Source of the DNA: an archaeon
GTDB lineage: Archaea; Aenigmatarchaeota; Aenigmatarchaeia; QMZP01; JAFGSV01
Assembly: GCA_028279705.1 (NCBI GenBank)
Contig: JANQNF010000024.1
Span: forward strand, 48,257-112,256
Reading direction: 5' to 3'
DNA: 64,000 nucleotides
This document shows positions 4,855 to 51,595 of the stretch, one piece after another (positions within the stretch are counted from its first letter, which is position 1; each line of letters begins with the position of its first letter). The notes beneath the pieces were generated by a model. The model was given only the letters and a program-made list of their open reading frames with translations. It was not told the DNA's origin and did not search any database. Made by a program: the position numbers and the translations under genes.

Positions 4855-4929
4855 GGGACCGTGGTGTAGCTTGGCCTAGCATCGGGGCTTCGGGAGTCCC
4901 AGACCTGAGTTCAAATCTCAGCGGTCCCA
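4855..4929 (+). tRNA. tRNA-Pro (CGG)
   Basis: 75-nt cloverleaf GGGACCG..TTCAAAT..CGGTCCCA with anticodon loop TTCGGGA. Confidence 0.8.
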
Positions 4930-4963
4930 TCGAATGACCCCCAAAACAATTATACGGTAAAAT

Positions 4964-5038
4964 GGGGCCGTAGTGTAGTTTGGCCTATCACTCGAGGCTG
5001 GGGGCCTCGTAACCGGAGTTCAAATCTCCGCGGCCCCA
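4964..5038 (+). tRNA. tRNA-Pro (GGG)
   Basis: 75-nt cloverleaf GGGGCCG..TTCAAAT..CGGCCCCA with anticodon loop CTGGGGG. Confidence 0.8.
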
Positions 5039-5050
5039 TCCTTTTTTTAT
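5039..5050 (+). terminator. oligo-T archaeal terminator after the tRNA-Pro pair
   Basis: A T7 run lies immediately 3' of the tRNA. Confidence 0.4.
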
Positions 5051-16181: not shown

Positions 16182-16649
16182 TTATGAAACTGTTCCGGTT
16201 ATTGTACCCATTTCCTTGAATCCGGTCAGTCCCGTGTCGAGATTGTCGTAGGTCAGCTCGACATCTGCCGAGTAAGTTGATCCGGCTGTCTGGTCAGTGC
16301 AGTACGCATTGATGGTTATACCCGTACCTACTCCCACAGAACCCGTTCCTGACGTGGCAGTGCAGCTTGTCGCACCAACGCTTACCGCGATTGCTGTTAT
16401 GTTTATCCTTGACGGAAGGTTGTTGGCCAAAACGAGCTGGAACTGATCTGTTGCATTGGTTGCACCAAGCTTCCATGCACCAGGTTCAGGCGCACCGATG
16501 TTTGTGAACCCAGTTGCCCTGGAACCAGTCCAGGTCGCCGGATTGAACACGCCGAGCGAATAAAGCGCCGCTGCCACGATGATCACGATCAGGATGGCCC
16601 AACCGTAAGTCATCAAGTATTCCATTGCTGCTTGTGCTTTCATTTTCAT
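16182..16649 (-). CDS. archaeal type IV pilin-like protein (class III signal peptide, DUF361-like), paralog 1
   Basis: N-terminus MKMKAQAAMEYLMTYGWAILIVIIV (K-A/Q-AAMEYL prepilin motif followed by a hydrophobic helix). Ser/Thr/Gly-rich secreted domain. Confidence 0.7.
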   Translation of the reverse strand: MKMKAQAAMEYLMTYGWAILIVIIVAAALYSLGVFNPATWTGSRATGFTNIGAPEPGAWKLGATNATDQFQLVLANNLPSRINITAIAVSVGATSCTATSGTGSVGVGTGITINAYCTDQTAGSTYSADVELTYDNLDTGLTGFKEMGTITGTVS

Positions 16650-16783: not shown

Positions 16784-17251
16784 CTAACTTACGGTTCCGG
16801 TTATTGTACCCATTTCCTTGAATCCGGCAAGACCGGTGTCAAGGTTCTCGTATGTCAGCTCGACATCTGCCGAGTAAGTTGATCCGGCTGTCTGGTCAGT
16901 GCAGTACGCATTGACTGTTATGCTCGAACCAACACCTGCAAGTCCTGTTCCTGCTGTAGCAGTGCAACTTGTTGCACCGACGCTGACTGTAACGGCTGTT
17001 ATGTTTATCCTTGACGGAAGGTTGTTAGCCAATTTCAGCTGGAACTGATCTGTTGCATTGGTTGCTGACAGTTTCCAAGCGCCTGGTGCGGGTGCACCGA
17101 TGTTTGTGAACCCAGTTGCCCTGGAACCAGTCCAAGTTGCCGGGTTAAAGACACCAAGTGCATACAATGCCGCTGCCACGATGATCACGATCAGGATGGC
17201 CCAACCGTAAGTCATCAAGTATTCCATTGCTGCTTGTGCTTTCCTCTTCAT
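16784..17251 (-). CDS. archaeal type IV pilin-like protein, paralog 2
   Basis: About 90% identical to 16182-16649 at both nucleotide and protein level, a tandem duplicate. Confidence 0.7.
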   Translation of the reverse strand: MKRKAQAAMEYLMTYGWAILIVIIVAAALYALGVFNPATWTGSRATGFTNIGAPAPGAWKLSATNATDQFQLKLANNLPSRINITAVTVSVGATSCTATAGTGLAGVGSSITVNAYCTDQTAGSTYSADVELTYENLDTGLAGFKEMGTITGTVS

Positions 17252-17337: not shown

Positions 17338-18186
17338 TTAAATCTCCGCTATTTCGGGCCTCTTCTTGAACTTGGCGAACGGCTCGCTTATGAATTCAGG
17401 CACCTTTCCCCTTATCATTACGTTCACGTAAAGGTGGGGTTTTATGCGTATCTTCCTGCTGCAGTTTCCCTTAAGGTAAAGCTCCAGCCATTCTATTGAC
17501 GTGAAGTCGATATCATTTTTGAGCCTGAACGTCACTTCGGTGCCAGACGTCTTCCTGGGCTCGACGTCTAGAATTGACAGTGCTGTTGGGACCGTTATCC
17601 TCTTGCCCCTCCTAAGCTTTATCACAAGGGATGCACTTTCTATTGAGACTGGCGAATAGCTGTCGTTTACAATGTCGTATGCGATCAGGACGTTTCTTAT
17701 CCTGCCCATCTTTTCGACCTTTTCCTTCATGCCGTAGAGATTGAGCACTTTTATCCTGTCGGAAAACAGCCTACATTTACTTATCCTGACAAACTGTATA
17801 GTCGGAACATACTGCCTTACCATCCTCTTTTGGAACTTGAGCTGCGCGTAGATGATCACTATCAGGACAAGCATCAGTATTGGCATGAGAATCGTTATGA
17901 GACTCTCGCCCCTGTACGTCATGACCATGAAGGCAGCAATGGCTATTATGGCACCGAAGAGCAGAGATTCTGTATAGCTTGACACCTTCCGGATTTCGAA
18001 AAGAACGTCCTCGGAGAAATACCTCACGCGCCTTAAGAACTTGTCCCGCTTCTGTCTGGCGCAAAACGACGCATACTTTCTCGTTGGTAAGTCGTGCTTG
18101 GTTGCCAATACCTCGTCGCGCCATTTGGAGATCCTGTGCTTTATCCTGTCCTTGAGCTTGCGCTTTGGCATGAACGGGATAATCAT
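17338..18186 (-). CDS. membrane protein, hypothetical (upstream of the pilin pair, same strand)
   Basis: Basic N-terminus, two TM helices, beta-rich C-terminal domain. Confidence 0.45.
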   Translation of the reverse strand: MIIPFMPKRKLKDRIKHRISKWRDEVLATKHDLPTRKYASFCARQKRDKFLRRVRYFSEDVLFEIRKVSSYTESLLFGAIIAIAAFMVMTYRGESLITILMPILMLVLIVIIYAQLKFQKRMVRQYVPTIQFVRISKCRLFSDRIKVLNLYGMKEKVEKMGRIRNVLIAYDIVNDSYSPVSIESASLVIKLRRGKRITVPTALSILDVEPRKTSGTEVTFRLKNDIDFTSIEWLELYLKGNCSRKIRIKPHLYVNVMIRGKVPEFISEPFAKFKKRPEIAEI

Positions 18187-18214: not shown

Positions 18215-19030
18215 ATGCAGACCGTTTATTCCCCCGAATGCCTCAAATATGATATTCCGGGCCATCCCGAATGCTCTGGAAGGGTGAGTGCTATATACCA
18301 AGCTCTCAATGACGACGGTCATACGTTCGTGACTCACGAGCCTGCCACAAAAGAAGACGTACTGCTCGTGCATTCCAAGGAGCATTACGATATGGTGAAT
18401 AAGGCTGATTATGCCGGGATAGAGACGCCTCCGATAGACATTAAGTTCCCGCTGCTTTCTGCCGGTGCGGCGATAAAGGCGTCAGAAGTGCTCGGATTTG
18501 CACTGACAAGACCTCCCGGACACCATGCCAGCCGTGACATGCTTGAGGGATTCTGCTACTTCAACAACGTGGCGATAGCCGTCAGGAAACAGGGAAAAAG
18601 AACGGCGATTCTGGACATAGACGTCCACCATGGAAACGGCACGCAGTCCATATTCCTCGGCGATGAAAGCGTCAGGTACGTTTCACTCCACCAGACGCCT
18701 CTTTATCCGATGACTGGACTTAGGTCCGAGCAGAACTGTCACAACTTTCCGCTCATCCCGGACACAAGTGAAAGAGAATACCTGAAGACGCTTGAGCGCG
18801 CACTTGAACTGGTAGAAAGGTTCAGTCCAGAGCTCCTTGCAGTTTCCATGGGTTTTGATACTTTTGAAGGTGATCCTCTTGCAGGGCAGCACCTAACGGC
18901 GAAGGGTTATGAAAAGATTGCTAAGATGATAAGTGACCTGAGCCTGCCGACTTTCATGACGCTTGAGGGCGGCTACAACGTGGAGAAGATCGGCGAGATG
19001 TGCAGACACTTTCTTGACGGATTTGAATGA
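18215..19030 (+). CDS. histone deacetylase/AcuC/acetylpolyamine amidohydrolase family protein
   Basis: RPPGHHA...FCYFNNVAIA...DIDVHHGNGTQ catalytic motifs. Confidence 0.8.
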   Translation: MQTVYSPECLKYDIPGHPECSGRVSAIYQALNDDGHTFVTHEPATKEDVLLVHSKEHYDMVNKADYAGIETPPIDIKFPLLSAGAAIKASEVLGFALTRPPGHHASRDMLEGFCYFNNVAIAVRKQGKRTAILDIDVHHGNGTQSIFLGDESVRYVSLHQTPLYPMTGLRSEQNCHNFPLIPDTSEREYLKTLERALELVERFSPELLAVSMGFDTFEGDPLAGQHLTAKGYEKIAKMISDLSLPTFMTLEGGYNVEKIGEMCRHFLDGFE

Positions 19031-19089: not shown

Positions 19090-19278
19090 ATGGATATCTC
19101 AAAGTATGAAATTGAAATAAAGAGGCACGCTTTCATACGCGCAATGGAACGTGGTATAACGCCGGACATGATAGAAGCGACCATAATGGGAGGGAAAGTC
19201 ATAAGGTTTGGCAAGAACAATGTGAAATTCGTTCGGCATTACAAAGATTGCGATGTCTTTGCGTTGACGAGATTGTAG
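19090..19278 (+). CDS. DUF4258-like small protein (putative toxin)
   Basis: 62 aa. The HAFIRAMERGI...IMGGKVI pattern matches DUF4258 as I remember it. Confidence 0.5.
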   Translation: MDISKYEIEIKRHAFIRAMERGITPDMIEATIMGGKVIRFGKNNVKFVRHYKDCDVFALTRL

Positions 19279-19342
19279 GAAAAAGAATAAAGATAGTGAC
19301 AATAGTCAGGAGACAATGAGCAGAGTTAATCGAGGTGGTAAA

Positions 19343-19648
19343 ATGAAAAAATGTGGTGATTGCAGAGGAAAAATGGAAGAGAAGGAATCCAAGACTCCCG
19401 AGGGAGTGAAATACAAGTATTCCAAATGCAATAAATGCGGTGAGGAAGTTGTCGGCATGCTCCAGCTGCGCGAAGTTTCTGTCAAATACAGGGCACTGAA
19501 ACTTTTTCACGCTAAAATGACGCAGTGGGGGCAGAGCCTTGGCGTGAGGATACCAAAAGAGCTTGTTGAAAGGTATCAGTTCAAGCCCAACGAGGAAGTT
19601 ACGATAATCCCGGAAAAGGAAGGGATAAGAATAATGACATGCAAGTGA
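19343..19648 (+). CDS. Zn-ribbon + SpoVT/AbrB-domain protein (putative antitoxin/regulator)
   Basis: CGDC...CNKC zinc ribbon, then GQSLGVRIPKELVERYQFKPNEEVTIIPEKEGIRI (AbrB/MazE swapped hairpin). GAGGTGGT lies upstream of the internal ATG at 19343. Confidence 0.55.
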   Translation: MKKCGDCRGKMEEKESKTPEGVKYKYSKCNKCGEEVVGMLQLREVSVKYRALKLFHAKMTQWGQSLGVRIPKELVERYQFKPNEEVTIIPEKEGIRIMTCK

Positions 19649-19660
19649 TTTGAGTTAATA

Positions 19661-20710
19661 CTAGCTCTTCTTCATTATGTAGGTGTCGGTGTCCTTCACA
19701 GGGTCGAGGAACTTGCACGATTTGAGTATGCTTCGGACTTCCTTTTCGTCGAATCCGAACTCCTTTGCGACGGCTTTCTCAGATATCACCGTCCGATCCG
19801 AGACGACGTCTCCGATCTTTTTTAGCCTGCCTGTGAAATTCAGCGCTTCCTTCTTTTGGTTGAACCAGTCGGAATAGCCAACCGTCAGCGGATGCCTGAT
19901 GTTGAAGTTTAGGTGGCCGTTCTTTGGCTCTGCCAGGAACAGCGAAAAGCTGCTGTCAGAGAACTTGTTGACAAAATGTGCCATCTCGATTCCAGCACCC
20001 TCGCTGACGAGCACTATTATCTTGTAGCCCTTCATCTTCCTTGCTTCCTTGTGGATGTATGCGTTTAACGCGTTCTCGTCGAATATTCCCCTTGAGTCGT
20101 AAGGAGTCACGAGAATGCTTAACCTTGTCTTTTTGAAGAACCATTTCTTGCTGTACACCTCGATTAGGTAGTCACCCTCATTCTTTTCGGACCTGAACTT
20201 GGCCTTCTTCACAAACTGCGTGGGAGTCCAGTCAATCGGGCCGTTTTGCTCCATCTTCTTTTGAAGCTGCCTTGAGAATTCAGAAGCGTAATACTGCAGC
20301 TTTGAGATCCTGCTCTCCTCGTGGTTATCCAGGACGCCTTTTAAGTCCACCTTAATTTCAGGCCCGTCTTCTTCCCCGAACACTTCCTTTTTGTCAGGGT
20401 CCTCCTCTTTCTCGTCTACGATATTTTTGGTGTGCTTTGTGCAGAACTTGTACTTGTGGACGTCCCAGCAGTCGTGGCATATGAGGTTTTCGCAGCCTTC
20501 CCACATGCATTTTCCAGCCCAGTCGGTCCTTGAACTTATCTTCCTGCCACACCTTGAGCAGAACTGCATGTTCTTATCGGAAAGCATCTCGTCGAGCTTC
20601 TCTTTTGCTTCCCGTTCCCTTTGGGCTATGTCAATTTCAAGGTCCTTTCTTGCAGCTTCCAGTCCCAGTTTCGCATCAGCGTCTTCAGAAACATTTTCCA
20701 TTTCAACCAC
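19661..20710 (-). CDS. Zn-ribbon domain protein, hypothetical (last gene of five-gene operon)
   Basis: CSRCG...C..C.NLICHDC zinc-binding cluster after an acidic coiled-coil N-terminus. Uncharacterised C-terminal alpha/beta domain. Confidence 0.5.
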   Translation of the reverse strand: MVEMENVSEDADAKLGLEAARKDLEIDIAQREREAKEKLDEMLSDKNMQFCSRCGRKISSRTDWAGKCMWEGCENLICHDCWDVHKYKFCTKHTKNIVDEKEEDPDKKEVFGEEDGPEIKVDLKGVLDNHEESRISKLQYYASEFSRQLQKKMEQNGPIDWTPTQFVKKAKFRSEKNEGDYLIEVYSKKWFFKKTRLSILVTPYDSRGIFDENALNAYIHKEARKMKGYKIIVLVSEGAGIEMAHFVNKFSDSSFSLFLAEPKNGHLNFNIRHPLTVGYSDWFNQKKEALNFTGRLKKIGDVVSDRTVISEKAVAKEFGFDEKEVRSILKSCKFLDPVKDTDTYIMKKS

Positions 20711-21206
20711 CGAGTGAGTGTCTTCTCTTCTTGAAAAGCGCCATTAGGTCGAGTATGTACTTTTTGAGCTGATCGCACTTCTTCGGTACGGTTGCACCAC
20801 CCTTGCCCCTGAGAACACTGTCCTGCATGTCCTCAATGAAACCTGCAAGCTTCACAGCGTTTTGCACGAGTGCGGAATCGAACTTTATGAGCCTCATGTA
20901 ATCCTTGTAGTCACCCACTTCGCTCCAGCTCATCTTGAGCCCGAGCTCCAGGAGGAATATGTCAAGCCACTGCATGACCTCGTCAAGGGGTCCTGCACTC
21001 TTCATGTCCTGCTCGCGGTACGCTGCCTCTATCATAGGGAAAAGGAAGTCCCTGGACTTGTTTATCTCATCTGCGACGATCTTTCTGAGTTTCTCGTCTG
21101 TCTTGTCCGTGTGCTTTGGATCCTTGTAGTTGTAGCCTTCTATAAGCTTTTCCATGCTGTTATATTCTTTTTTTACTTGTCCTCTCGCTTTTCCCCATTC
21201 ACTCAT
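20703..21206 (-). CDS. hypothetical alpha-helical protein
   Basis: 167 aa, 8-nt overlap with the downstream gene, no known domain. Confidence 0.45.
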   Translation of the reverse strand: MSEWGKARGQVKKEYNSMEKLIEGYNYKDPKHTDKTDEKLRKIVADEINKSRDFLFPMIEAAYREQDMKSAGPLDEVMQWLDIFLLELGLKMSWSEVGDYKDYMRLIKFDSALVQNAVKLAGFIEDMQDSVLRGKGGATVPKKCDQLKKYILDLMALFKKRRHSLGG

Positions 21207-21207
21207 T

Positions 21208-21726
21208 TTACCACCCTGTAACTATCTTCTCCCTCTCTTTCATGAGGGATGCTATCTCGTCTGTGTATACTTTAATTTTATCCAGATTTTTAATAAAGTA
21301 ATTTTCCCTGCCCTTTTCAAGGAGCGTCCTGTGGAGTGAATGTGCAACCGCTTTCATTTCCCTCACTTTGGTTACGAGCTCCTTGTCCCTCCGTATGAGA
21401 TCTCGTAGATCCTTTTCGACCTTTTTCGTGCAGGCGTCGCACGCTTTCTTGCCTTTCTTGCCGCACGTCCTGCTGACTTCTGCCCTGATTGCAAGCGACC
21501 TCGTCTCGTCCCAGATCGCTTCTGCCGCCATGCTTAACTTGTCGCGCTGCAGTTCAAATCCGACCTGGACCACGTGGAACATGACGTCCTTGACTTTCTT
21601 TATTTCGGAAACGAGGAACTGCTTGACCTTGGCGTCTGTTTCGACAGCGCACTTGACATTGGTGTAGCTGTATTCCGGCACTACGCCTTCCATCATTTCC
21701 ATGATGTCGAAAAAATCATCGGACAT
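21208..21726 (-). CDS. hypothetical alpha-helical protein with CGKKGKKACDAC Cys cluster
   Basis: 172 aa, 1-nt spacing to the next gene. Confidence 0.45.
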   Translation of the reverse strand: MSDDFFDIMEMMEGVVPEYSYTNVKCAVETDAKVKQFLVSEIKKVKDVMFHVVQVGFELQRDKLSMAAEAIWDETRSLAIRAEVSRTCGKKGKKACDACTKKVEKDLRDLIRRDKELVTKVREMKAVAHSLHRTLLEKGRENYFIKNLDKIKVYTDEIASLMKEREKIVTGW

Positions 21727-21730
21727 TCTA

Positions 21731-22879
21731 TCACTTCTTTTTCTTCTCCATCTTCACTTCCAGTTCGGTCTTCTCCTTCTCAGCTTCCTCGACCATCTTC
21801 CTGAGTGTCTCCTTGTCAATCTTTCTTTGCAGGTATTTCTTCTCTGCAGAACCTATCATCTTCTGCAGACCGTCGTACCTTTCCTCAAGAGTGCCGCCGC
21901 TCTCGTCGGGCACTACCTCCTTCAGGGACTCGAGCCCGAGATTTTTCCTCTCGACCTCTTCTGCCATCTTCTGCTTTTCCTTCACGTCCTTTAGCTTCAG
22001 TCCCTCGAGGGCGTCCTTCATGTCCTGCTGGGTTTCCTCTTCCTCTATCTGCATCTCTGCCTCGCGCTTTATGCGCTCCCTCTGCATCTCGTCCAGAGCA
22101 CCTTCCCTTGTCTCGACGGTACCACTTATCTCAGCCATCTCCCTGTCGTGGACTGTCTTTCTGGTGTCCTCCTCCTCGTCGATTCTGGACTTTTCAACGT
22201 CTTCCTTGATTTCCCCGCGCCTTTTGAGATATTCCTTGTAATCTTTAGGGAGTATGAACTCGACCGAAAACGACAGCAGCCTAAGGCCGAACACCTCAAA
22301 CTTCTTCCTCGCCTCGACTTCCACTGCTATTCTTATCTCCTTTTCGACCTTCTTCTCGTCCTGGAGTTCGTCTACGACCTTCTTTTTGACTATCGGTGCC
22401 ATGGATGACACCACTATCTCTTTTCTGAGCTCTGTCCATACGTCCTCCACGCTTAAGATGTTTCTTCGTCCCATCAGAAGCTTCCTTACTTTTTCTGCGT
22501 CAGTGACAGAGAACTTCATCTCTATTGCAGCGTTTATCTCCTTGTCGTCCCCTGTCCAGAGACCTTTGATGTCCTGGTGGATGCTTTTTGGAGACGTGTC
22601 GACAAACACGACGTTCATCTCTGACCCAGAAAACATGCCAGACACTTTGTGCTTTCCTTCCGAAAAGGACCTTACGGGTTCTCCCTCCTTTTCAAGTACA
22701 GCATTTTCGGTCTCGGAGAGCTGTATCTTCTTTCCAAGAAATCCGTCTATCTGTGAGACTGCAACCCTTTGCGAAATCGTCGAATCCGACTTTTCCCACT
22801 TCATGGCCATATGTATCATTTCCCGATGAAATTTATAAGCTTCAGGTTCCCGTTCTCTGCACGACCGAGTCCTTGACAT
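21731..22879 (-). CDS. SPFH/band-7 (flotillin-like) domain protein with long E/K-rich coiled-coil tail (start probably internal, ~22819)
   Basis: N-terminal region with NVVFVDTS...FGLRLLSFSVEFILPKDYKEYLKRR resembling the SPFH core, then about 200 aa of EK-rich coiled coil. Confidence 0.45.
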   Translation of the reverse strand: MSRTRSCREREPEAYKFHREMIHMAMKWEKSDSTISQRVAVSQIDGFLGKKIQLSETENAVLEKEGEPVRSFSEGKHKVSGMFSGSEMNVVFVDTSPKSIHQDIKGLWTGDDKEINAAIEMKFSVTDAEKVRKLLMGRRNILSVEDVWTELRKEIVVSSMAPIVKKKVVDELQDEKKVEKEIRIAVEVEARKKFEVFGLRLLSFSVEFILPKDYKEYLKRRGEIKEDVEKSRIDEEEDTRKTVHDREMAEISGTVETREGALDEMQRERIKREAEMQIEEEETQQDMKDALEGLKLKDVKEKQKMAEEVERKNLGLESLKEVVPDESGGTLEERYDGLQKMIGSAEKKYLQRKIDKETLRKMVEEAEKEKTELEVKMEKKKK

Positions 22880-24566
22880 TTACTACTTTTTTTGTGGCCT
22901 TTCCTTCTTCACCTGAGCCTATCCTCGACCTCTGAACGACAGAATCTATGATGTTTATGACCTTCTTTATTTCAACCTTCTCCACTTCGTGCGCATCGGT
23001 CTCGGATACTATAGTGTGCCTTATTATGTCTGCAATCTTTTCGAGATTTCTGTCTATGTCCTCTTCCTTTTCAGAGTAAAGCTTGAATACGAGGTGTGCA
23101 AGTTCTTCGTCCTTTTTTATGACTGCGGTGAGAAGGTAGTGCTTTCCTTCCAGCTTGAACGAATAAAGTACCATGACTTCCTTTTCGAACTTGTGCTCAG
23201 CTACAAGCGACATGTCCTTGCAGTTTTCCATGATGTGCTTTAGTACAACACCGCCCTTGAGCCCGCGGAACGTGTAGCCCTTCTGGTGATGGAACATCTT
23301 CTTTTCCAGTTCCACGTAAAGCTTCTCGCTTATCGGGTATGCGCTGATGCTATTGTCTATGTGCTTTTTGTTCTCTTCTGCCTTGGTTGCTGCCTCCGAA
23401 ACCTTCTTTGGCTGCGGCTCTGAGGCAAGGACGCTTGCGATGACGGGCTTTATTTCCTCCCCGTATTTCCTCCCCTTCTCATCGTGCATTATTATCCTGC
23501 CTTCGGCTATCTTGTGCCTTCCTGGGATGCCGACCTTCATGCTCCATGCTGCCCCGTACTCCTCTCCTGGCGAAAGCTTGTCGAATTCCTTTGGATTCTG
23601 GTGCGGCACGCTGACTCCTTCGTCGAAGTCCACGTCCACCTTCAGGTCCTGAAGCGGCGTGGACGAAAGGTTCTTGACCAGGATGACAAGCTTGCTCGTC
23701 TTTCCTGCAACCGGGTCAGGGTGCAGGTGCGGCGTTATCTGTATGCTCGGCCGTACGATCACCGACACTGGCCTGATTTCAAAATCCAGCAATTCCCCTT
23801 CGTTGTTGTTCCACGTTATGAAATTGTAGGGTGAACTGAGCTTTCCTATCGTACCTGACGTTTCGTACGAGAAGACGTTGACCTCTCCCGGCTTGAGCTT
23901 CTCTATATCATGCGTAATCTTTGCGTCCCTGTCGCCCACCACCACGTTTGTTATGGTTTCCTTTGTGTGGTTCTCAACTACAATCTCGAATCTTACTTTC
24001 TCACCTTCGCTTACCACTTCCTTGTCTGCGTACTGGTCAACCCTTGGGTGCGATATTGAATGCTTTAGCCTGTTCACTTCACTTTTCAGGTCATCGTCGT
24101 GCTCTATTTCACAGGCCTTGTCATACAGCTTTATTGCCTTGTCCGGCCTTCCCGAATCCTTGCTTGCCTGTGCTGCAGTCTTGTAGCACCACTGCGCGGC
24201 GTAGACGCTTCCTGATTCCTCGAATTTCCTGGCACCCCTCATCGCGTAATCAATAGTATTTTCGTAGTCTCCCTTTCCTTTTGCAGCAAGTGCAGCGGAC
24301 CTGTAGGACCATCCCGCGTTGAACGCGTTTCCTGTCGATTCGCTGTACTCCGCTGACTGGAGCGCATAGTTGATCCCGTCGTCCCATTCCCCGGCCCTTC
24401 TTGCAAGGACAGACAACCTGTGGTACATCCACGCAGCGTTGTCAATGTCGTTTTTTTCCGCACTTTCTTGCGCTTTTTCAAGAAGCTTTGATGCGTGCTT
24501 TTCGTAATCCTTCCTGCTTATGGACGCATCGTCAGAACTTTTTGACAGCATGTTGAAAAGCGACAT
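22842..24566 (-). CDS. TPR-repeat protein with two CARDB/DUF11-like beta-sandwich domains and a C-terminal alpha/beta domain
   Basis: N-terminal TPR-like repeats (AWMYHRLS...AGWSYRSAA...AAQWCYKTAA), beta-sandwich repeats, and a possible roadblock-like C-terminus. Confidence 0.5.
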   Translation of the reverse strand: MSLFNMLSKSSDDASISRKDYEKHASKLLEKAQESAEKNDIDNAAWMYHRLSVLARRAGEWDDGINYALQSAEYSESTGNAFNAGWSYRSAALAAKGKGDYENTIDYAMRGARKFEESGSVYAAQWCYKTAAQASKDSGRPDKAIKLYDKACEIEHDDDLKSEVNRLKHSISHPRVDQYADKEVVSEGEKVRFEIVVENHTKETITNVVVGDRDAKITHDIEKLKPGEVNVFSYETSGTIGKLSSPYNFITWNNNEGELLDFEIRPVSVIVRPSIQITPHLHPDPVAGKTSKLVILVKNLSSTPLQDLKVDVDFDEGVSVPHQNPKEFDKLSPGEEYGAAWSMKVGIPGRHKIAEGRIIMHDEKGRKYGEEIKPVIASVLASEPQPKKVSEAATKAEENKKHIDNSISAYPISEKLYVELEKKMFHHQKGYTFRGLKGGVVLKHIMENCKDMSLVAEHKFEKEVMVLYSFKLEGKHYLLTAVIKKDEELAHLVFKLYSEKEEDIDRNLEKIADIIRHTIVSETDAHEVEKVEIKKVINIIDSVVQRSRIGSGEEGKATKKVVNVKDSVVQRTGT

Positions 24567-24649
24567 AGTTAATAAATGGCAGTAAAAATTATATTAATAC
24601 CGTGCGATGAAGACATGGTTTTTTAAAATTATCACCACTTTCATTATTC

Positions 24650-25642
24650 ATGAGTGGGTACATGGATTTGAGAAGGAGCGCGCTTTCGGGACTTCTCGTC
24701 GGTGAAGACAGTATGCCTGACGGAAACGTTATTGACGTAAAACAATATCCTGATTTCGACAAGAAGATAGGCAACGTCTGGGTAAGGTCAATAGGATATA
24801 AAAGCAGATTTTTCCCAGTTTGCGAAACCGACGAAGACGGTGACACAGAAACGATACACAACGATACAAGCATTCCCGCACTCATTCTTGAAGGAGACAC
24901 CAGCGTGAAAAAGAACGGAAAGGGTGTCATAGCCCTTCATCAGCATGCAAGGGATTATAAACTCGGCAAGAGCGAGGTTGCCGGCCTGAAGAAGGGAAAA
25001 AGCGGGGACATGATGAAATACGGACTTGAGCTGGCGAATAAGGGCTACCATGTAATATGCTTTGATTTCAAGCCCTTTGAGGACAGGCTTGTTACCGATG
25101 AAAAATCTGATGATTACAACGCTGAGAGAATTCTAAAGCAGGAGACTACCGTTGACGGTATAGAACCGATGGGCATCCACGTTCTTGATACGATGAGGGC
25201 TGTTGACGTAATGGGCGATTACTGCGGCATTGAAGATGTTGGCGTGATAGGGCATTCTCTTGGAGGGACTGTCGCTTTATATTCGATGGCATCCGACGAT
25301 AGAATAAAGGCGGGAGTCTCAAACTGCGGCGTTGCGACATTCGATTCCGTCAGGAATGACTACAAAATACATAATTGGGCATGGTCAGTCCACGGCATAA
25401 AGAAGGACTTTGGCGAGTTCCACAAGCTTCTGGAACTGATTTCACCTAGGGCACTCATGATAGCTTCTGGAAAAGGTGACAACATCTTCCCAATAGAAGG
25501 TGCAGAGAATGTCGTCAAGTGGGGAAGTAAGTATTACACAGAATGCCCGGAAAACCTAAAGTTCGAGGCTTTCAATGGCGGGCACACTTTCCCTGAAGAT
25601 GTGCGTAACGGCGCCTACAAGTTCTTTGACGATATGCTTTGA
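24650..25642 (+). CDS. alpha/beta-hydrolase (dienelactone hydrolase / acetyl-xylan-esterase-like)
   Basis: Nucleophile elbow GHSLGG and the architecture of a cap-less alpha/beta hydrolase. Confidence 0.65.
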   Translation: MSGYMDLRRSALSGLLVGEDSMPDGNVIDVKQYPDFDKKIGNVWVRSIGYKSRFFPVCETDEDGDTETIHNDTSIPALILEGDTSVKKNGKGVIALHQHARDYKLGKSEVAGLKKGKSGDMMKYGLELANKGYHVICFDFKPFEDRLVTDEKSDDYNAERILKQETTVDGIEPMGIHVLDTMRAVDVMGDYCGIEDVGVIGHSLGGTVALYSMASDDRIKAGVSNCGVATFDSVRNDYKIHNWAWSVHGIKKDFGEFHKLLELISPRALMIASGKGDNIFPIEGAENVVKWGSKYYTECPENLKFEAFNGGHTFPEDVRNGAYKFFDDML

Positions 25643-25688
25643 ATTTTTAAGCATGTTTTACCAAGAATAGAAAATCTGGGTTTTCATT

Positions 25689-25805
25689 ATGGCAAAGTAC
25701 GAGTGCGTCAAGTGCGGCTGGCAGGGAAAGCCGATGGTGATGGAGCCTGTAACTAAGGTCTGTCCAAAGTGCGGTTCAGTCCAGCTAGAGAAGATAAAGA
25801 AATAG
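25689..25805 (+). CDS. small zinc-ribbon protein (38 aa), not in the ORF track
   Basis: MAKYECVKCGWQGKPMVMEPVTKVCPKCGSVQLEKIKK, two CxxC pairs. Confidence 0.4.
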   Translation: MAKYECVKCGWQGKPMVMEPVTKVCPKCGSVQLEKIKK

Positions 25806-25817
25806 GACCACCCGGTC

Positions 25818-26816
25818 TTATGATACTTTGGGTTCTTCAGGATGCTCTTTGAAGTTTTCATCAGCACGATCCATTTCAGGGAAGTATCTCATTTTTGGTA
25901 TGTCCCTTGATCTACAATACCTTATGTAAAGAATGTCACTTCCCAGGATCTTCTTTATTTCATCCACGATCTCCTTGAACCTGTATTCACTTTCGACTTC
26001 CAGGTCGAATTCTATGTTCGACCCCCCTATTGTCATGTCCTCGTACGTTATGTTTGGATGTGACGATATGAATTCCCTTAAACTCCCTTCATTATCCTTC
26101 TTCTCAAGTTCTATGCCGACTTTATAGTATTTCATTCCGAGCTTTCTCAGGTCAAGGTCGGCCCTGTAGCATAGTATTACACCCATGTCTTCAAGCCTTT
26201 TCATTCGGTAACTCACGTTGGCTGCTGTCATTGAAAGTTTTTCCGCGATTTTCACAAGAGGTTCCCTGGCATTCCCTGAGAGTATTTTCATGAGTTCTAT
26301 GTCGGTACTGTCAATCTTCTCCCTCGCTGATATCCCTATGTGCTTTTTCCAACCGCTTTTTCCGAGATACCCTCTTCCGTGGTAAACTATTTCGTATACG
26401 ACTGCATGATTCTTTTCCATTATGTTTGATTTGAAACGCCTCTCGAAGCGGTCCCATTCTTCCCTGAATTCTGAAAAATCCCTTGTCATGTACATTACGG
26501 TCATGTCCCATACATTCTCCGTTTTCATTATAGCCGATGCGCTCTTGCTGTTCTCCAGGAATTCCTCCATCTTATTCTCCGTCTCACTTGACATGTTCTT
26601 GAAGCGTATGTCTGCCCTGAAGATCAGGTACCCCATTTTTGAGAAGTTGAACAGAGCGTGATAGCCTCTTATCACGCCACGCTTCTCAAGATTCTTTATC
26701 CTGTAATTGACTACTTCCCTGCTGGCGGATACACTATCTGCTATATTTTTCATGGACGACCTGGCGCTCGTGTCGAGCTCAGCTAAAATTTGCAAATCAA
26801 GTTTGTCCATTTTCAT
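25818..26816 (-). CDS. full-length tandem Lrp/AsnC-family transcriptional regulator (paralog of 10221-11228)
   Basis: Two HTH_AsnC plus RAM units (DKLDLQILAELDTSARSSMKNIADSV..., DIELMKILSGNAREPLVKIAEKLSM...). I chose the start at MKMDKL (26816) rather than the extended ORF. Confidence 0.65.
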   Translation of the reverse strand: MKMDKLDLQILAELDTSARSSMKNIADSVSASREVVNYRIKNLEKRGVIRGYHALFNFSKMGYLIFRADIRFKNMSSETENKMEEFLENSKSASAIMKTENVWDMTVMYMTRDFSEFREEWDRFERRFKSNIMEKNHAVVYEIVYHGRGYLGKSGWKKHIGISAREKIDSTDIELMKILSGNAREPLVKIAEKLSMTAANVSYRMKRLEDMGVILCYRADLDLRKLGMKYYKVGIELEKKDNEGSLREFISSHPNITYEDMTIGGSNIEFDLEVESEYRFKEIVDEIKKILGSDILYIRYCRSRDIPKMRYFPEMDRADENFKEHPEEPKVS

Positions 26817-26922
26817 TTTTACAATTTCAATATTCATTTTTAAAATTAATAAAACTTTTTCCGCGGGGTGATCTTTTAAATGTAGTTTTTCGGACCAGTG
26901 TCCCCCGGATGACCAACCGGGT

Positions 26923-28926
26923 TTATTTTTTACTTTTCTTGATTCCATCTTTTTTCGATTTCTCGCCCTTTTCGGTTCCTGCAGCACTGTCGGTTTTTTT
27001 GGCCCCTTCTATGACACTCTTATGTTTTTCCGGCTTACGTTTTTTACTTTCCATGACTATGAGGTATGAAGCCGATACGACCAGAAGCGAAATGACTGCC
27101 ATTGCCACTATCGTGATATTGTCAAATACTTTCTTGTCAACCCCGGGCTTCTCTTCCCCAGTACAAGCATTCTTTTTGGCATCGCAACCATCTTCGCATC
27201 TTTTCAGAAGTGACCATCCGGACCCGTCACCTTCACATTCATACAGTTTGCCGTTCATGCACGACCTGTCTGATGGCGTGCATATTTTTTCAGGGACTTC
27301 AACGTCATCTTCCAGTACTTGCGCGTAAAATTCAGTTTTTACTTCGTCTATTATTGCGGCCACTTTCTGGCCGATGACCTCATAATTTATGGAAAACTCG
27401 TCTTCCGGACCGATTTCCGGATACGTTATCAGCCAGCTTGGGTCATCCTCCACCACGACAACCGTTGCTCCAGGTGCTGACACATTCACAAGACTTGCGT
27501 CAGCCGCAAATGACTTAGGGACCTTTTCGAAGACCATGAAATTCCTCACCTTCTTTTTACCCGAATATTTTATTGTAGTTTTCAGTTCCGTTCTGGTGCC
27601 GCTGAACTCAAGCGTGCGCCTGACTTTGGTGTCCCTGGTCACTGTCTCTGATATGTTTTTCAGCACTGTCTTTTCATCATCGTCCAGGTGATCATCAGAT
27701 AATACCTCGCCGATAGCTTTTGTCAGGTTCATGTTAATGTCTATCTCTGCCCCCGCTTCTATCGTGGGGTTTATGGACGTGTTGTCAGGAACTGTTATGA
27801 CCGTCGTGCCGCCTGTTCCGCCGCCCGATGTGGTACAGGACTGCGTTTCCTCAGAAACCCATGGATACTGGCACATGCTGCCGTCGTTGCATGACCTTGT
27901 TTTTTGCCCCCCTGTGCATGAAGACCAGTCCCCGCATGCCCAACTCGAATTGCATTCAAGTGTGGTGAAATTCAATACCCCTGAAATGTTGCAATTGCCA
28001 GACGCGTCGCATGAAGTTACATTGTAATAATGAGTCGTGTTCTTTGTGAGATACTTCAATGTCAGATTATGAGCCATAGTAAGAGACGCGCTGTTTACAC
28101 TTCCTGAGACTGAATGTGAAAATGGAAAGTGACTAACTGTAGAATCTGACGGCTCATCAGTTTCCCATATAATGTTTGCGGATATGGCACTTACCGCATC
28201 TTCAGTGATGTTTAATAGGGACGGCGGTGTTTCGTCAGGTGTTGTCATATTCACGTTAATATTTCTTACCACAGAATTCCCGTTACTCACAGCATCGCTG
28301 CATTCTATGTACCACGTGCTTGAACCATTTGGAACAGACGTGTTTTGTATTGTAGTGTTCGTTGCATTTGTCACGGATACATTTTCACCTGAAAATGATC
28401 CGTTTATGTAAAGTGCGCATGACATAGTCGCTTTCATGTTGTCAAGTGCAGTGAACTTGAAACCCATTGACTGGTTCGAAGAGTTGTGATTGTCGGGCGG
28501 GTATAGTAGGTTGACAGACGGAGGTTCATTGTCAATGAATAGCGCCCACGTACCAGAAATCATCGAATTCGCGTTTGTGCAGTTCACAAACCAGTTGAAT
28601 ATACCGTCGCTTAACGAGTGGTTTGCATAAACCGTTCCAGTGCTGCCGTTGGCAACCGGACCGGCAGTACCGCTACTCGTGTTGTCAATGAAAAGTACAC
28701 AGGTTGCCGGTGAGTCACCTCCCGTGTAGTTGAACCGGAACTGTATAGTATCATTCGTTCCGTTGGTCCATAAACCATTTCCCGGTGATATGAGATTGAC
28801 AATGTCCACGCCGGCACCGGTAACAGAAATGGCATAAAATATCGTGGACAGAGAGAAGAGTGCAAGCATCCCGCATAATACATGTTCCACTGTTCTCATT
28901 TTTTCACTCAACCATGTTGTGTCCAA
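26923..28926 (-). CDS. large cell-surface glycoprotein with C-terminal TM anchor and Lys-rich tail
   Basis: Signal peptide, more than 40 N-x-S/T sequons, Cys-rich modules, C-terminal TM (IVAMAVISLLVVSASYLIV), KK-rich tail. Confidence 0.6.
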   Translation of the reverse strand: MDTTWLSEKMRTVEHVLCGMLALFSLSTIFYAISVTGAGVDIVNLISPGNGLWTNGTNDTIQFRFNYTGGDSPATCVLFIDNTSSGTAGPVANGSTGTVYANHSLSDGIFNWFVNCTNANSMISGTWALFIDNEPPSVNLLYPPDNHNSSNQSMGFKFTALDNMKATMSCALYINGSFSGENVSVTNATNTTIQNTSVPNGSSTWYIECSDAVSNGNSVVRNINVNMTTPDETPPSLLNITEDAVSAISANIIWETDEPSDSTVSHFPFSHSVSGSVNSASLTMAHNLTLKYLTKNTTHYYNVTSCDASGNCNISGVLNFTTLECNSSWACGDWSSCTGGQKTRSCNDGSMCQYPWVSEETQSCTTSGGGTGGTTVITVPDNTSINPTIEAGAEIDINMNLTKAIGEVLSDDHLDDDEKTVLKNISETVTRDTKVRRTLEFSGTRTELKTTIKYSGKKKVRNFMVFEKVPKSFAADASLVNVSAPGATVVVVEDDPSWLITYPEIGPEDEFSINYEVIGQKVAAIIDEVKTEFYAQVLEDDVEVPEKICTPSDRSCMNGKLYECEGDGSGWSLLKRCEDGCDAKKNACTGEEKPGVDKKVFDNITIVAMAVISLLVVSASYLIVMESKKRKPEKHKSVIEGAKKTDSAAGTEKGEKSKKDGIKKSKK

Positions 28927-29092
28927 ACTATTGATGGAATAATGTGATTCTCAACTTTTAATACTTTATCCAGTCATGGCATATACAACTATTTTACAAT
29001 TATAATAATTTTAATTTAAAAAATTAAAAATATGTAAAAATATTTAAACTCAATTTTACAATAATTACACATCTAAATGAGGAGGTAAATAA
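28927..29092. promoter_or_regulatory. AT-rich divergent promoter region between two surface-protein genes; strong SD (AGGAGGT) before ATG 29093
   Basis: About 165 nt of more than 80% A+T with TATA-like boxes on both strands. Confidence 0.4.
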
Positions 29093-30232
29093 ATGGCGAT
29101 CAAAACACTAGCTATTATGTCAATGGCACTAGTTGTCCTTTCCATCAGCTTTACAGGCGTGCAGGCATACGAATTCAGTGAAGACTGGGAAACCGGGTCG
29201 ATTTCTTCACTCAAGTGGGCGACGTCAGGGACAAACCAGTACAGAACTTACGTGACGACTGGGTACTCACCCCGTGACACATACCACATACGCATGGACG
29301 ACAGCAGGGGCGACGGGACTTACAGCAGGAACGAACTAACCACTAAGGAAGACTTTTCCGGTGCAACGACCATGCAGCTGAGCTTCTACTGGAAGGAGCA
29401 ATATGACGAGAGTCATTACTGCCCGTCTACATGGAACTTCAGCGCGAACGGGGATTGTGTGGCTTTCACATGCGACGGATTCGTCTGGCATAAGATAATA
29501 GACCTTACAGGCGGTACAAGTTCGTACAAGAACGAAGTATACAACATATCCACACATCCAAACTTCTGTGAAGAAGTGGACTCTTCGTTTGCCATAAAGT
29601 TCCAGCATTACGACAACTATCCGCTTGGCAGTGACGGAATCTTCCTTGATGACATATCAGTAACCTATGAAATCGAGAACGATGACTCCTGCGAAGACAG
29701 CGACGGCGGGATTGTTGCAGATGTCTTTGGCTATTTGACCATTTCACTTAACGGCAGCCAATACAACCAGAGCGATTACTGCGACGACGGTTCCACTGTC
29801 ATGGAGTACTACTGCGACGGTAACTATGAAGAGTCCCAGCTGACAAGCTGCGGTACAGACAGTTACGGCGATGCCTACTGCATCGGGGACGATGTGTACA
29901 AAGACTACACTGACAACTACTGTTCGTATGGTGCGTGTGATTACAGTGTGACACCCACACTGCAGGAATCATGCGAATACGGATGCTATGGTGGCTCCTG
30001 TAATGAGCCGCCTGCCGACTACTGCAATGAAACCGATGGTGGAATGTTCCCCTACACGTTTGGTACAGCATTTGGGTTTTTCAGTGGTTATTCCTATAGT
30101 GAACCCGATTTCTGTGTGAATAACGTGACGTTAACGGAATTCTACTGCAGCGGGGACTATCACTATGAAACGAACATAAGTTGCGTGGTAAACGGTACAG
30201 GTTATTGCTACGATGGCAAATGTCAGTTCTGA
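29093..30232 (+). CDS. secreted Cys/Tyr/Asp-rich repeat protein, hypothetical
   Basis: Signal peptide MAIKTLAIMSMALVVLSISFTGVQA, then repeated YCDDG/CxxDxY modules. Confidence 0.55.
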   Translation: MAIKTLAIMSMALVVLSISFTGVQAYEFSEDWETGSISSLKWATSGTNQYRTYVTTGYSPRDTYHIRMDDSRGDGTYSRNELTTKEDFSGATTMQLSFYWKEQYDESHYCPSTWNFSANGDCVAFTCDGFVWHKIIDLTGGTSSYKNEVYNISTHPNFCEEVDSSFAIKFQHYDNYPLGSDGIFLDDISVTYEIENDDSCEDSDGGIVADVFGYLTISLNGSQYNQSDYCDDGSTVMEYYCDGNYEESQLTSCGTDSYGDAYCIGDDVYKDYTDNYCSYGACDYSVTPTLQESCEYGCYGGSCNEPPADYCNETDGGMFPYTFGTAFGFFSGYSYSEPDFCVNNVTLTEFYCSGDYHYETNISCVVNGTGYCYDGKCQF

Positions 30233-30340: not shown

Positions 30341-31195
30341 CTATATCTTTTTTATCTTTCCTGGTGTCGGTTCGTAGCAGACGCCTTCCCCAAGGAGCTC
30401 GTTTATCACGCCTTCGAGGTCTTCCTCTGGCGCTCCCGACTGCTGCATGAGTTCGCTGTACTTTATTCCTTCTTGGCTGCCTTCTATCAGCGTGAGCACT
30501 TTCTTCCTGAGGTTCTCGCCTTCTGCGGGTTCAGGTTTTTCTTCTTCCTGCGGCTTTGGAGGTTCAGGCTTAGCATCGGCTGCCTCAGGCTTTGCTTCAG
30601 CTGCTGGTTCCGGCGCTTTTGCAGGTTCTTCCTTAATCGGTTCCGGTTGCGCTGCCTGCTGGGGTGCTGGAGGCGTTTGCGTCTTCACCGGTTCAGCTGC
30701 TGGTTCCGGCTTTGCTTGGGGTTCTTTGGTTTCCGGTGGAGCCTGTGCAGGCTGAGTAGGCTCTTCCTTTGGCGCTTCCTGCACGTTTCCGGACCTCTTC
30801 TTGATCAGTTCCAGAACCTCGAGCCTGAAAAGCGTTTCCTGGTCTGGAGTTATCTTGGTTATGATCTCCGGTACTATGTATATCTCGCCCTCGTATTCCC
30901 GCACCTTGCCTATGAGATTCACGAGGTCTCCTACCTGGACAGTGTTTAGAAGTTCTATCTCCCTCCACAGCTTGGCCCTGATGGAAGCCGTGGAATCGTC
31001 AAGCGTGATTGAAGAGAAGTTGCCGTCTTCGGAAGTGAACTTACCTACTACGGTTCCCGCTATCCTGGCTCTTGCGATGTTTTCCTTGGCCGGGGTGATA
31101 ACGTAGCTTGGTTCCATTCCTTCCTTTTTCACCCACTCGCCGCTTATCAGGTCAACTGCCCGGACTTTCTTTGCGGTCTGTCTCTGAATTGGCAT
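30341..31195 (-). CDS. OB-fold + winged-helix protein (RPA32-like architecture) with P/E/A/K low-complexity linker
   Basis: N-terminal OB-like block (ARIAGTVVGK...IRAKLWREI...VGDLVNLIGKVREYEGEIYIVPEI), about 90-aa PEAK repeats, C-terminal wH (LIEGSQEGIKYSELMQQSG...LLGEGVCYE). Confidence 0.5.
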   Translation of the reverse strand: MPIQRQTAKKVRAVDLISGEWVKKEGMEPSYVITPAKENIARARIAGTVVGKFTSEDGNFSSITLDDSTASIRAKLWREIELLNTVQVGDLVNLIGKVREYEGEIYIVPEIITKITPDQETLFRLEVLELIKKRSGNVQEAPKEEPTQPAQAPPETKEPQAKPEPAAEPVKTQTPPAPQQAAQPEPIKEEPAKAPEPAAEAKPEAADAKPEPPKPQEEEKPEPAEGENLRKKVLTLIEGSQEGIKYSELMQQSGAPEEDLEGVINELLGEGVCYEPTPGKIKKI

Positions 31196-51382: not shown

Positions 51383-51432
51383 GAAACTCCCAGAAATTTT
51401 ATTAATGTTACCCTGTCATTATATTCATCGAT

Positions 51433-51529
51433 GGGCCTGTAGCTCAGTCTGGTTAGAGCACCCGGCTCTTAGGGGTCACTTGACCACGGAGAAACCGGGG
51501 CGTCGCGGGTTCGAATCCCTCCAGGCCCA
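51433..51529 (+). tRNA. tRNA-Lys (CUU) with 22-nt intron at the canonical 37/38 position
   Basis: GGGCCTG-TA-GCTC-AGTCTGGTTA-GAGC-A-CCCGG-CTCTTA[22 nt]A-CCGGG-GCGTC-GCGGG-TTCGAAT-CCCTC-CAGGCCC-A. Confidence 0.7.
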
Positions 51530-51595
51530 TTTCATTTTCTAAAGTTTTCCCACAGAAGACCGAAGGGTTTTTATTACTTTCTTTCAAGAATCAAT

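Follow-up and report, generated by a model that had tools for sequence, protein, structure and literature searches.

Five adjacent genes in the genome of an archaeon of the Aenigmatarchaeota may encode a module organised around a soluble SPFH/Band-7 protein. The genes, designated A to E, occupy positions 19661-24566 of a stretch of 64,000 nucleotides (nt) from contig JANQNF010000024.1 (assembly GCA_028279705.1, positions 48,257 to 112,256 of the forward strand), which is referred to here as the window. In the interpretation that we favour, and to which we assign roughly even chances, the cluster is a dedicated, lineage-specific archaeal SPFH-scaffold module, in which a core of the SPFH protein (B), small helical-bundle proteins (C and D) and a multidomain zinc protein (E) is complemented by lineage-specific adaptors. 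The theme of an SPFH protein acting with partners is known. The two partner families, represented by C and D and by E, are new, and the module is restricted to Aenigmatarchaeota-type archaea. None of the five proteins matched a named system in profile and database searches, in agreement with the original prediction, which had been made from the sequence alone.

A conserved and translationally coupled gene cluster

The five open reading frames (ORFs) run in the same direction on the minus strand, in the order A-B-C-D-E. Gene A (22842-24566) encodes a soluble accessory protein of 574 amino acids, gene B (21731-22810) the SPFH protein of 359 amino acids, gene C (21208-21726) a 172-amino-acid paralogue of D, gene D (20703-21206) the 167-amino-acid founding member of a new helical-bundle family, and gene E (19661-20701) a protein of 346 amino acids. 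The limits of B and E follow ATG starts at 22810 and 20701 that are conserved in orthologous loci; the longest ORFs span 21731-22879 and 19661-20710, respectively. The same five genes, with B and E of 359 and 346 amino acids, are called on an identical public contig (Logan SRR20820740). All five genes are real, as their lengths are conserved in 22 further loci at 50-74% protein identity. Strong negative GC and AT skew on the plus strand across 20-24 kb fits purine-rich coding on the minus strand. Antisense ORFs of up to 191 amino acids, rich in Ser, Leu and Phe, are present on the plus strand at 21813-22829 and 23347-24256, opposite the E/K-rich coding sequences of A and B. These are shadow ORFs, and their apparent conservation mirrors the sense-strand genes.

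With the conserved starts, the junctions measure +31 nt (A-B), +4 nt (B-C), +1 nt (C-D) and +1 nt (D-E), and this spacing is kept across genomes at 50-70% protein identity. A second conserved ATG of B, 9 nt upstream of 22810, would reduce the A-B junction from +31 to +22 nt. Of the spacings originally reported, the 4-nt and 1-nt gaps are correct, whereas the overlaps of 38 and 8 nt are artefacts of taking the longest ORFs. At the D-E junction (20702-20713, minus strand), the terminal codons of D, CTC GG(A/T) GGN TGA, encode Leu-Gly-Gly-stop and contain an embedded Shine-Dalgarno sequence 6-9 nt before the ATG of E, which reads GGAGG in most orthologues and GGTGG in the window. This codon series ends D in all orthologues of the clade, and the Leu-Gly-Gly end is invariant there because the codons double as the Shine-Dalgarno sequence for E. 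A comparable site, GGTGG/GGTGA, is found at the C-D junction.

Two elements in the non-coding sequence may direct transcription. An AT-rich, TATA-like box, aatataat (24567-24600, minus strand), lies about 20-29 nt upstream of the start of A in an alignment of nine loci and is a probable archaeal promoter for a leaderless or short-leader transcript. In the 31-nt spacer between A and B (22811-22841, minus strand), a conserved TTTTTA(T/A)A stands about 26 nt before the ATG of B, with ATGATAAAC just ahead of it. This second TATA-like box is a possible internal promoter for B-E, so that these four genes may also be transcribed on their own.

Conservation of the cluster and its core

Gene order A-B-C-D-E is the same in 11 genome and 11 metagenome loci of Aenigmatarchaeota, as far as each contig reaches. 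Among 5.8 billion sequences, homologues of B amount to 25 clusters; none is less than 48% identical, and the named clusters all belong to Aenigmatarchaeota (DPANN). Homologues of E also form 25 clusters, with a narrow distribution identical to that of B, and a pattern scan for relatives of E returned the window's clade only. A 742-kb chromosome, CP070804, retains the module; the loss of A and of part of B there is only apparent and is caused by scaffold gaps. Co-conservation across loci was therefore found in place of the lack of it that the original prediction had named as an objection to itself. Clade-wide colinearity, conserved spacing and co-conserved members likewise bear out its description of the cluster as a conserved, translationally coupled unit.

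More distant relatives delimit the part of the cluster that is retained outside this clade. Divergent loci were taken as the contexts of intermediate C/D-family members, 28-36% identical to D. In one of them (L017), identities are 33% for B, 41% for C, 36% for D and 50% for the N-terminus of E; another (L015) contains B, a single D-like gene and E. A third group (L029-L031) encodes a Band_7 protein of 336 amino acids, a D-like protein of 165 and an E-like protein of 356 (34% identity over the full length), in surroundings that differ from those of the window and include histone, PHP and aIF5B genes. No A gene is present upstream of B in L029-L031, which represent the one divergent lineage whose contigs extend that far. 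Partial arrangements are seen in L032, with a D-like gene followed by an E-like gene, and in the P0087 contig, with a Band_7 gene followed by a D-like gene. Overall, B, C/D and E stay adjacent at about 30% identity, with overlapping or 1-4-nt junctions.

Because B, one or two C/D genes and E are kept together in divergent lineages with different surroundings, this trio can be regarded as the functional core. The absence of A from L029-L031 and the single C/D gene of L015 indicate that A is a clade-specific accessory and that the C/D duplication is not universal. Thus, A lies outside the evolutionary core, contrary to its initial description as a full member of the cluster. From comparison of the loci, the bundle gene appears to have been duplicated to give C and D in the window's clade, with the TPR/Ig-like protein A added upstream.

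Protein B, a soluble SPFH/Band-7 protein

Protein B combines a divergent SPFH/Band-7 domain, at about residues 30-210, with about 150 residues of conserved E/K-rich sequence that probably form a coiled coil; E and K together account for 31% of the whole protein. The Pfam family PF01145 is matched by 8 of 23 B-family members (best E 3.2e-11), and Band_7_1 (PF13421) by 5 of 23. The orthologue in L029 scores 43.1 bits on Band_7, against a curated cut-off of 23.6, and its match begins near residue 30. The B protein of the window has no Pfam match at E<=0.1 and is thus below detection, so its SPFH membership rests on orthologues that are 48-69% identical. These family-level matches agree with the initial assignment of B as an SPFH/Band-7 protein with an E/K-rich C-terminal half. 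A profile search of the PDB with B returned no SPFH protein, no similarity to MVP and nothing significant. Protein B has neither a transmembrane segment nor a hydrophobic hairpin (maximum 19-residue Kyte-Doolittle mean 1.07), and the same applies to the module as a whole, with no transmembrane-like segment in any of the five proteins (maximum mean <=1.12).

Proteins C and D, a new family of four-helix bundles

Proteins C and D are paralogues in a new four-helix-bundle family, sharing 22% identity over their full length (E 2e-8). The model of the bundle has a predicted local distance difference test (pLDDT) score of 95.7. In it, D consists of an N-terminal helix followed by an up-down four-helix bundle with helices at residues 30-64, 68-88, 100-132 and 137-162, consistent with the earlier view of both proteins as small and helical. 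An exhaustive profile search seeded with C and D expanded the family to 72 representative clusters. Across the family, Y25, D110 and R161 are invariant, and D37 is present in 55 of 58 sequences. By helix topology, these four residues would lie at one end of the bundle and may mark a conserved interaction site. Protein C differs from D in the loop joining helices 3 and 4, which is longer in C and bears a CxxC motif confined to the C orthologues of this clade. The cysteine cluster CxxxxxxCxxC that had drawn attention to C is indeed present, but only its CxxC pair is conserved. A zinc-hook role for this pair was considered and set aside as clade-specific speculation, the motif being absent in other lineages.

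The suggestion that the two proteins might resemble ESCRT-III or PspA was followed up and did not hold. The closest structural matches of D are designed helical repeats, IncA and NLR coiled-coil domains, and CHMP3 aligns over just 81 residues of this closed, compact bundle. Comparison of the 58-sequence C/D family with Escherichia coli PspA by hhalign gave a probability of 0.3%, the Snf7 and PspA families of Pfam are not among the matches listed for 22 family members, and the charge polarity of C/D is the reverse of that of ESCRT-III. Sequence and profile searches of the PDB with C and D returned nothing significant.

A distant branch of the family, with proteins of about 200 amino acids, is encoded at 2033-2644 in L013 and 8001-8606 in L034 and carries the motifs DIFSDEIK and FKEREVICNIK. 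In both of these long contexts, the gene lies just upstream of a rhomboid protease gene. An association with rhomboid proteases was set aside, because the genomes are related and the rhomboids 63% identical, so that the two cases amount to one observation.

Protein E, a multidomain protein with a predicted binuclear zinc module

Protein E begins with a long helix (residues 4-40), followed by a zinc module (45-92), a disordered acidic linker (93-126), an alpha/beta domain (128 to about 290) that bears a D-W-T-P motif, and a winged helix (about 290-346). The eight putative zinc ligands, C48, C51, C65, C70, C75, C78, C87 and H90, are invariant in 24 sequences and are kept in the 34%-identical orthologue of L029. 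Their spacing, C-x2-C-x13-C-x4-C-x4-C-x2-C-x8-C-x2-H, is that of an eight-ligand cross-brace of the RING/PHD-like type. Predicted secondary structure places ligand pairs 3 and 4 at helix N-termini, in a part of the model with a pLDDT of 60-70, and the Prok-RING_4 family is weakly matched by 7 of 11 E members (best E 0.11). By ligand spacing, residues 45-92 are classed as a RING/PHD-like binuclear zinc module, for which metal binding is predicted. The first description of E as a zinc ribbon joined to an alpha/beta domain was correct for the latter; the ribbon is instead the eight-ligand module, and the helix, acidic linker and winged helix are additional.

The alpha/beta domain was compared with the PD-(D/E)xK restriction-endonuclease-like nucleases. 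Their D...(D/E)xK catalytic motif is not conserved in it: on strands 2-3, acidic positions are variable (E to T, S or Y). Conservation within the clade is limited to K185, D157, D208 and E258, and E258-P259 is lost in L029. Foldseek comparison of E with the PDB gave nothing significant, including no significant nuclease match, and sequence and profile searches of the PDB were equally negative.

Protein A, a clade-specific accessory protein

Protein A contains TPR/SNAP-like repeats (about residues 20-170), two Ig-like beta-sandwiches of the DUF11/CARDB type (about 176-260 and 284-370) and a domain without family assignment (about 400-525). Its Pfam matches are below threshold yet consistent, with TPR_12 in six of seven members, DUF11 and NPCBM_assoc each in four of seven and SNAP in two of seven, and a profile search of the PDB weakly retrieved TPR and gamma-SNAP. 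The architecture of TPR repeats plus two DUF11/CARDB-type sandwiches, as first proposed, is therefore upheld by matches that all fall under the Pfam thresholds. The C-terminal tail is nearly invariant and carries a pair of (I/K)DSVVQR(S/T) motifs; no protein other than A has this twin DSVVQR motif in the window or in loci L001-L012. Profile comparison of A with E showed them to be unrelated.

Neighbouring genes and insertions

Downstream of the module throughout the clade lies a gene for a protein of 282 amino acids (17338-18186, minus strand), which is very basic (net charge +29) and has a strongly hydrophobic, transmembrane-like segment near residue 96. A 28%-identical homologue is encoded within 3 kb of the core in two divergent loci (4274-5287 in L029 and 4392-5069 in L030). 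No part of the protein, its C-terminal domain included, has a Pfam assignment. This protein is a candidate associated gene product that may be linked to the module as a membrane anchor or partner. Neither A-E nor the flanking genes nor the 282-amino-acid protein gave a Pfam match to NfeD, and no protease gene was found among the neighbours scanned.

Convergent with E is a pair of genes of toxin-antitoxin (TA) type (19090-19648, plus strand), in which a DUF4258-like ORF of 62 amino acids (E 7e-4, below threshold) is followed by a 110-amino-acid protein with a zinc ribbon and an AbrB/MazE-type, antitoxin-like domain (PF04014, E 3.9e-8). None of the 17 orthologous loci that extend past E contains the pair, which is thus an insertion specific to this genome. 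A histone-deacetylase/acetoin-utilisation-type gene (18215-19030, plus strand; PF00850, E 6e-61) is the convergent neighbour of E clade-wide and does not adjoin the core in L029-L031.

On the other side of the module, A and the nearest gene in synteny (30341-31195) are separated by a block of about 5.7 kb (24650-30232). Genes in this block encode an alpha/beta hydrolase, a double AsnC/Lrp-type helix-turn-helix protein and a probable surface protein of 667 amino acids rich in Cys and N-x-S/T, and there is an ORF of 379 amino acids. The block has no counterpart in the related loci that extend to this position, where the homologue of 30341-31195 is the nearest detected syntenic neighbour of A, and it is probably a strain-specific insertion. 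Elsewhere in the window, two adjacent minus-strand ORFs (16182-16649 and 16784-17251) both match a single shared region in each related locus and look like a tandem duplication in this genome; at its N-terminus, the product of 16784-17251 resembles archaeal type-IV pilins. Positions 4855-5041 contain two tRNA-Pro genes. A tRNA gene of 97-99 nt at 51432-51530 (plus strand; Rfam, 52.9 bits) is given an odd four-base anticodon by ARAGORN and probably contains an intron.

Comparison with known SPFH assemblies

In the classical membrane SPFH assemblies (stomatin-NfeD, HflK/C-FtsH, flotillin and erlin-RNF170), an SPFH domain and a helical oligomerisation region are combined with dedicated partners, an arrangement that the module may share; in the erlin-RNF170 pair, for example, the SPFH scaffold is paired with a RING protein. 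Unlike the membrane-anchored SPFH proteins stomatin, HflK/C, prohibitin and flotillin, B has no transmembrane segment or hydrophobic hairpin. Moreover, no NfeD match is found among the neighbours scanned, in contrast to stomatin-NfeD, and the C/D and E families have no described relatives.

The closest described logic is that of SamGHI/YdjGHI-PspA of Bacillus subtilis, with partner proteins that are unrelated to those found here. SamI/YdjI is a cytosolic SPFH protein with operon-encoded zinc-ribbon and membrane partners; it recruits PspA and is thought to be an assembly scaffold (PMC8581546; PMC11237479; bioRxiv 10.64898/2026.02.06.704340). Like the pspA-ydjGHI (samGHI) operon, the archaeal cluster groups an SPFH protein lacking an anchor with zinc-binding and small helical proteins. 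However, YdjG consists of two zinc ribbons, an NTF2-like domain and a transmembrane segment, and YdjH of a TPM domain and a transmembrane segment, whereas E combines an eight-ligand module of cross-brace type with an alpha/beta domain and a winged helix. No PspA/ESCRT-III homologue is present in the archaeal module; no TPM, NTF2-like or transmembrane protein was found within A-E; and the module is archaeal and limited to DPANN-type lineages. With respect to ESCRT-III, PspA and Vipp1 themselves, C and D are set apart by their closed four-helix bundle, the lack of profile similarity, their reversed charge polarity and the lack of an AAA+ partner.

Compact archaeal MVP-like SPFH proteins are soluble, comprise about 320-400 amino acids with a variable C-terminal region and are also reported from DPANN (PMC13607799). 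Protein B resembles them in being soluble, archaeal, of similar size (359 amino acids) and equipped with an SPFH domain. In contrast, the Band_7 match of the B orthologue already starts at about residue 30.

A scaffold model and its alternatives

Solved SPFH assemblies oligomerise as rings or cages. By extension, B would assemble into such a ring or cage by way of its C-terminal helices, and on this C and D would dock by the conserved polar patch at the end of their bundle (Y25, D37, D110 and R161) and E by its N-terminal helix and zinc module. The winged helix and the non-catalytic alpha/beta domain of E may then be offered to a client as protein-binding surfaces, and in the window's clade A could add peptide-binding surfaces. 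Because none of A-E has a membrane anchor, any attachment to a membrane must come from a partner, for which the nearby basic 282-amino-acid protein with its hydrophobic segment is a candidate. Several points weigh against a dedicated scaffold module. Complex formation and the oligomerisation of B are inferred rather than directly evidenced, and no client or enzymatic activity can be named. The flanks on both sides of the cluster are also syntenic across genomes of the clade, so that a shared gene order inside the clade says little about function. Linkage is argued from a small number of short contigs of divergent lineages. In addition, distant C/D-family members are found in places where B and E are missing (L013 and L034), and the bundle protein is therefore not obligatorily tied to an SPFH protein.

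The synteny of the flanks would also be expected if the five genes formed no functional unit and were neighbours merely by inherited gene order in a narrow clade. This explanation is very unlikely, given that B, C/D and E remain adjacent at about 30% identity in other surroundings, with overlapping or 1-4-nt junctions, that Shine-Dalgarno sequences are embedded at the junctions, and that B and E have identical, narrow distributions. A functional unit of another kind would be an analogue of SamGHI/YdjGHI-PspA, in which B recruits C and D as ESCRT-III/PspA-like polymers and E serves as the zinc-ribbon recruiter; if true, it would imply a membrane-repair or division activity in DPANN archaea. Although its operon logic is similar, we consider this proposal unlikely in view of the compact closed bundle of D, with its best matches to designed helical repeats, IncA and NLR coiled-coil domains, the negligible score of C/D against E. 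coli PspA, the lack of Snf7 or PspA among the matches listed and the reversed charge polarity. Furthermore, no Vps4-like ATPase, TPM-domain protein or transmembrane protein is found within A-E. A soluble vault-like cage, with B as a closed cytoplasmic shell and C/D and E (the latter possibly binding nucleic acid) as cargo or cap, would account for the missing membrane anchor of B, and the only soluble cage known to contain an SPFH domain is MVP. Reports place compact MVP-like SPFH proteins, moreover, across archaea including DPANN (PMC13607799). An N-terminal MVP repeat would, however, hardly fit ahead of the Band_7 match, which starts at about residue 30 of the B orthologue, and no similarity to MVP emerged when PDB profiles were searched, which makes such a cage distinctly improbable.

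An anti-phage defence or stress-abortive module, with the putative endonuclease-like domain of E as effector, is just as improbable. The idea of a defence or stress module beside a TA pair, part of the original prediction, loses its footing with the recognition of that pair as an insertion missing from the 17 loci that extend past E. PADLOC gave no significant match for any of the five proteins; C alone drew weak matches to AbiEii (E 6e-5 and 2.5e-3), with none for B, D or E. No relatives of the module were found in viral contigs, phages or plasmids. Protein E has no conserved D...(D/E)xK motif and no significant nuclease match in Foldseek. Together with the fixed syntenic position of the module and its retention in a 0.74-Mb genome, the lack of PADLOC, viral, phage and plasmid relatives argues for a vertically inherited cellular function and not for a mobile defence island. 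Finally, the Leu-Gly-Gly end of D in all orthologues of the clade, and the RING/PHD-like ligand spacing and weak Prok-RING_4 matches of E, are features expected of a ubiquitin-like or peptide tagging system with D as modifier and E as RING-type ligase. This explanation is largely refuted and hardly credible. In other lineages, D-like proteins have different ends (...GVLA in L029), and the GG codons form the GGAGG Shine-Dalgarno sequence for E. In addition, D is a 167-amino-acid helical bundle and not a beta-grasp protein, and the cluster contains no E1, E2 or JAB genes. On the junction analysis and the wider alignment, D as a ubiquitin-like modifier was rejected.

Implications for SPFH proteins and DPANN archaea

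SPFH proteins are universal and, to our knowledge, their organised partners are known in few cases (FtsH, NfeD, PspA, channels and RNF170). As a dedicated scaffold module, the cluster described here would give a soluble SPFH protein a compact, genetically defined set of partners in organisms whose genomes are minimal. That about 4.9 kb is kept in such genomes points to an important role. Two new families are introduced as well. The first, a four-helix bundle modelled with confidence, comprises 72 representative clusters and has a Y/D/D/R patch; the second is a multidomain protein with a predicted binuclear zinc module of RING/PHD-like type, an unusual feature for archaea.

A more far-reaching and rather doubtful proposal is that a soluble SPFH cage and its own adaptors constitute a previously unknown membrane-organising or compartment-forming machine in these DPANN archaea, with possible roles in division, in membrane repair or at a host-contact site. 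If so, in combining an SPFH scaffold and a RING-like protein, these archaea would have their own equivalent of the SPFH-RING pairs of eukaryotes, or of a minimal vault. ESCRT-III is reported to be missing from DPANN (PMC7619361), and a functional substitute for it is a conceivable role of the module, at lower probability. If the putative complex acts on membranes, it would bear on how DPANN archaea remodel membranes without ESCRT-III; if it does not, it may represent a new type of soluble SPFH assembly.

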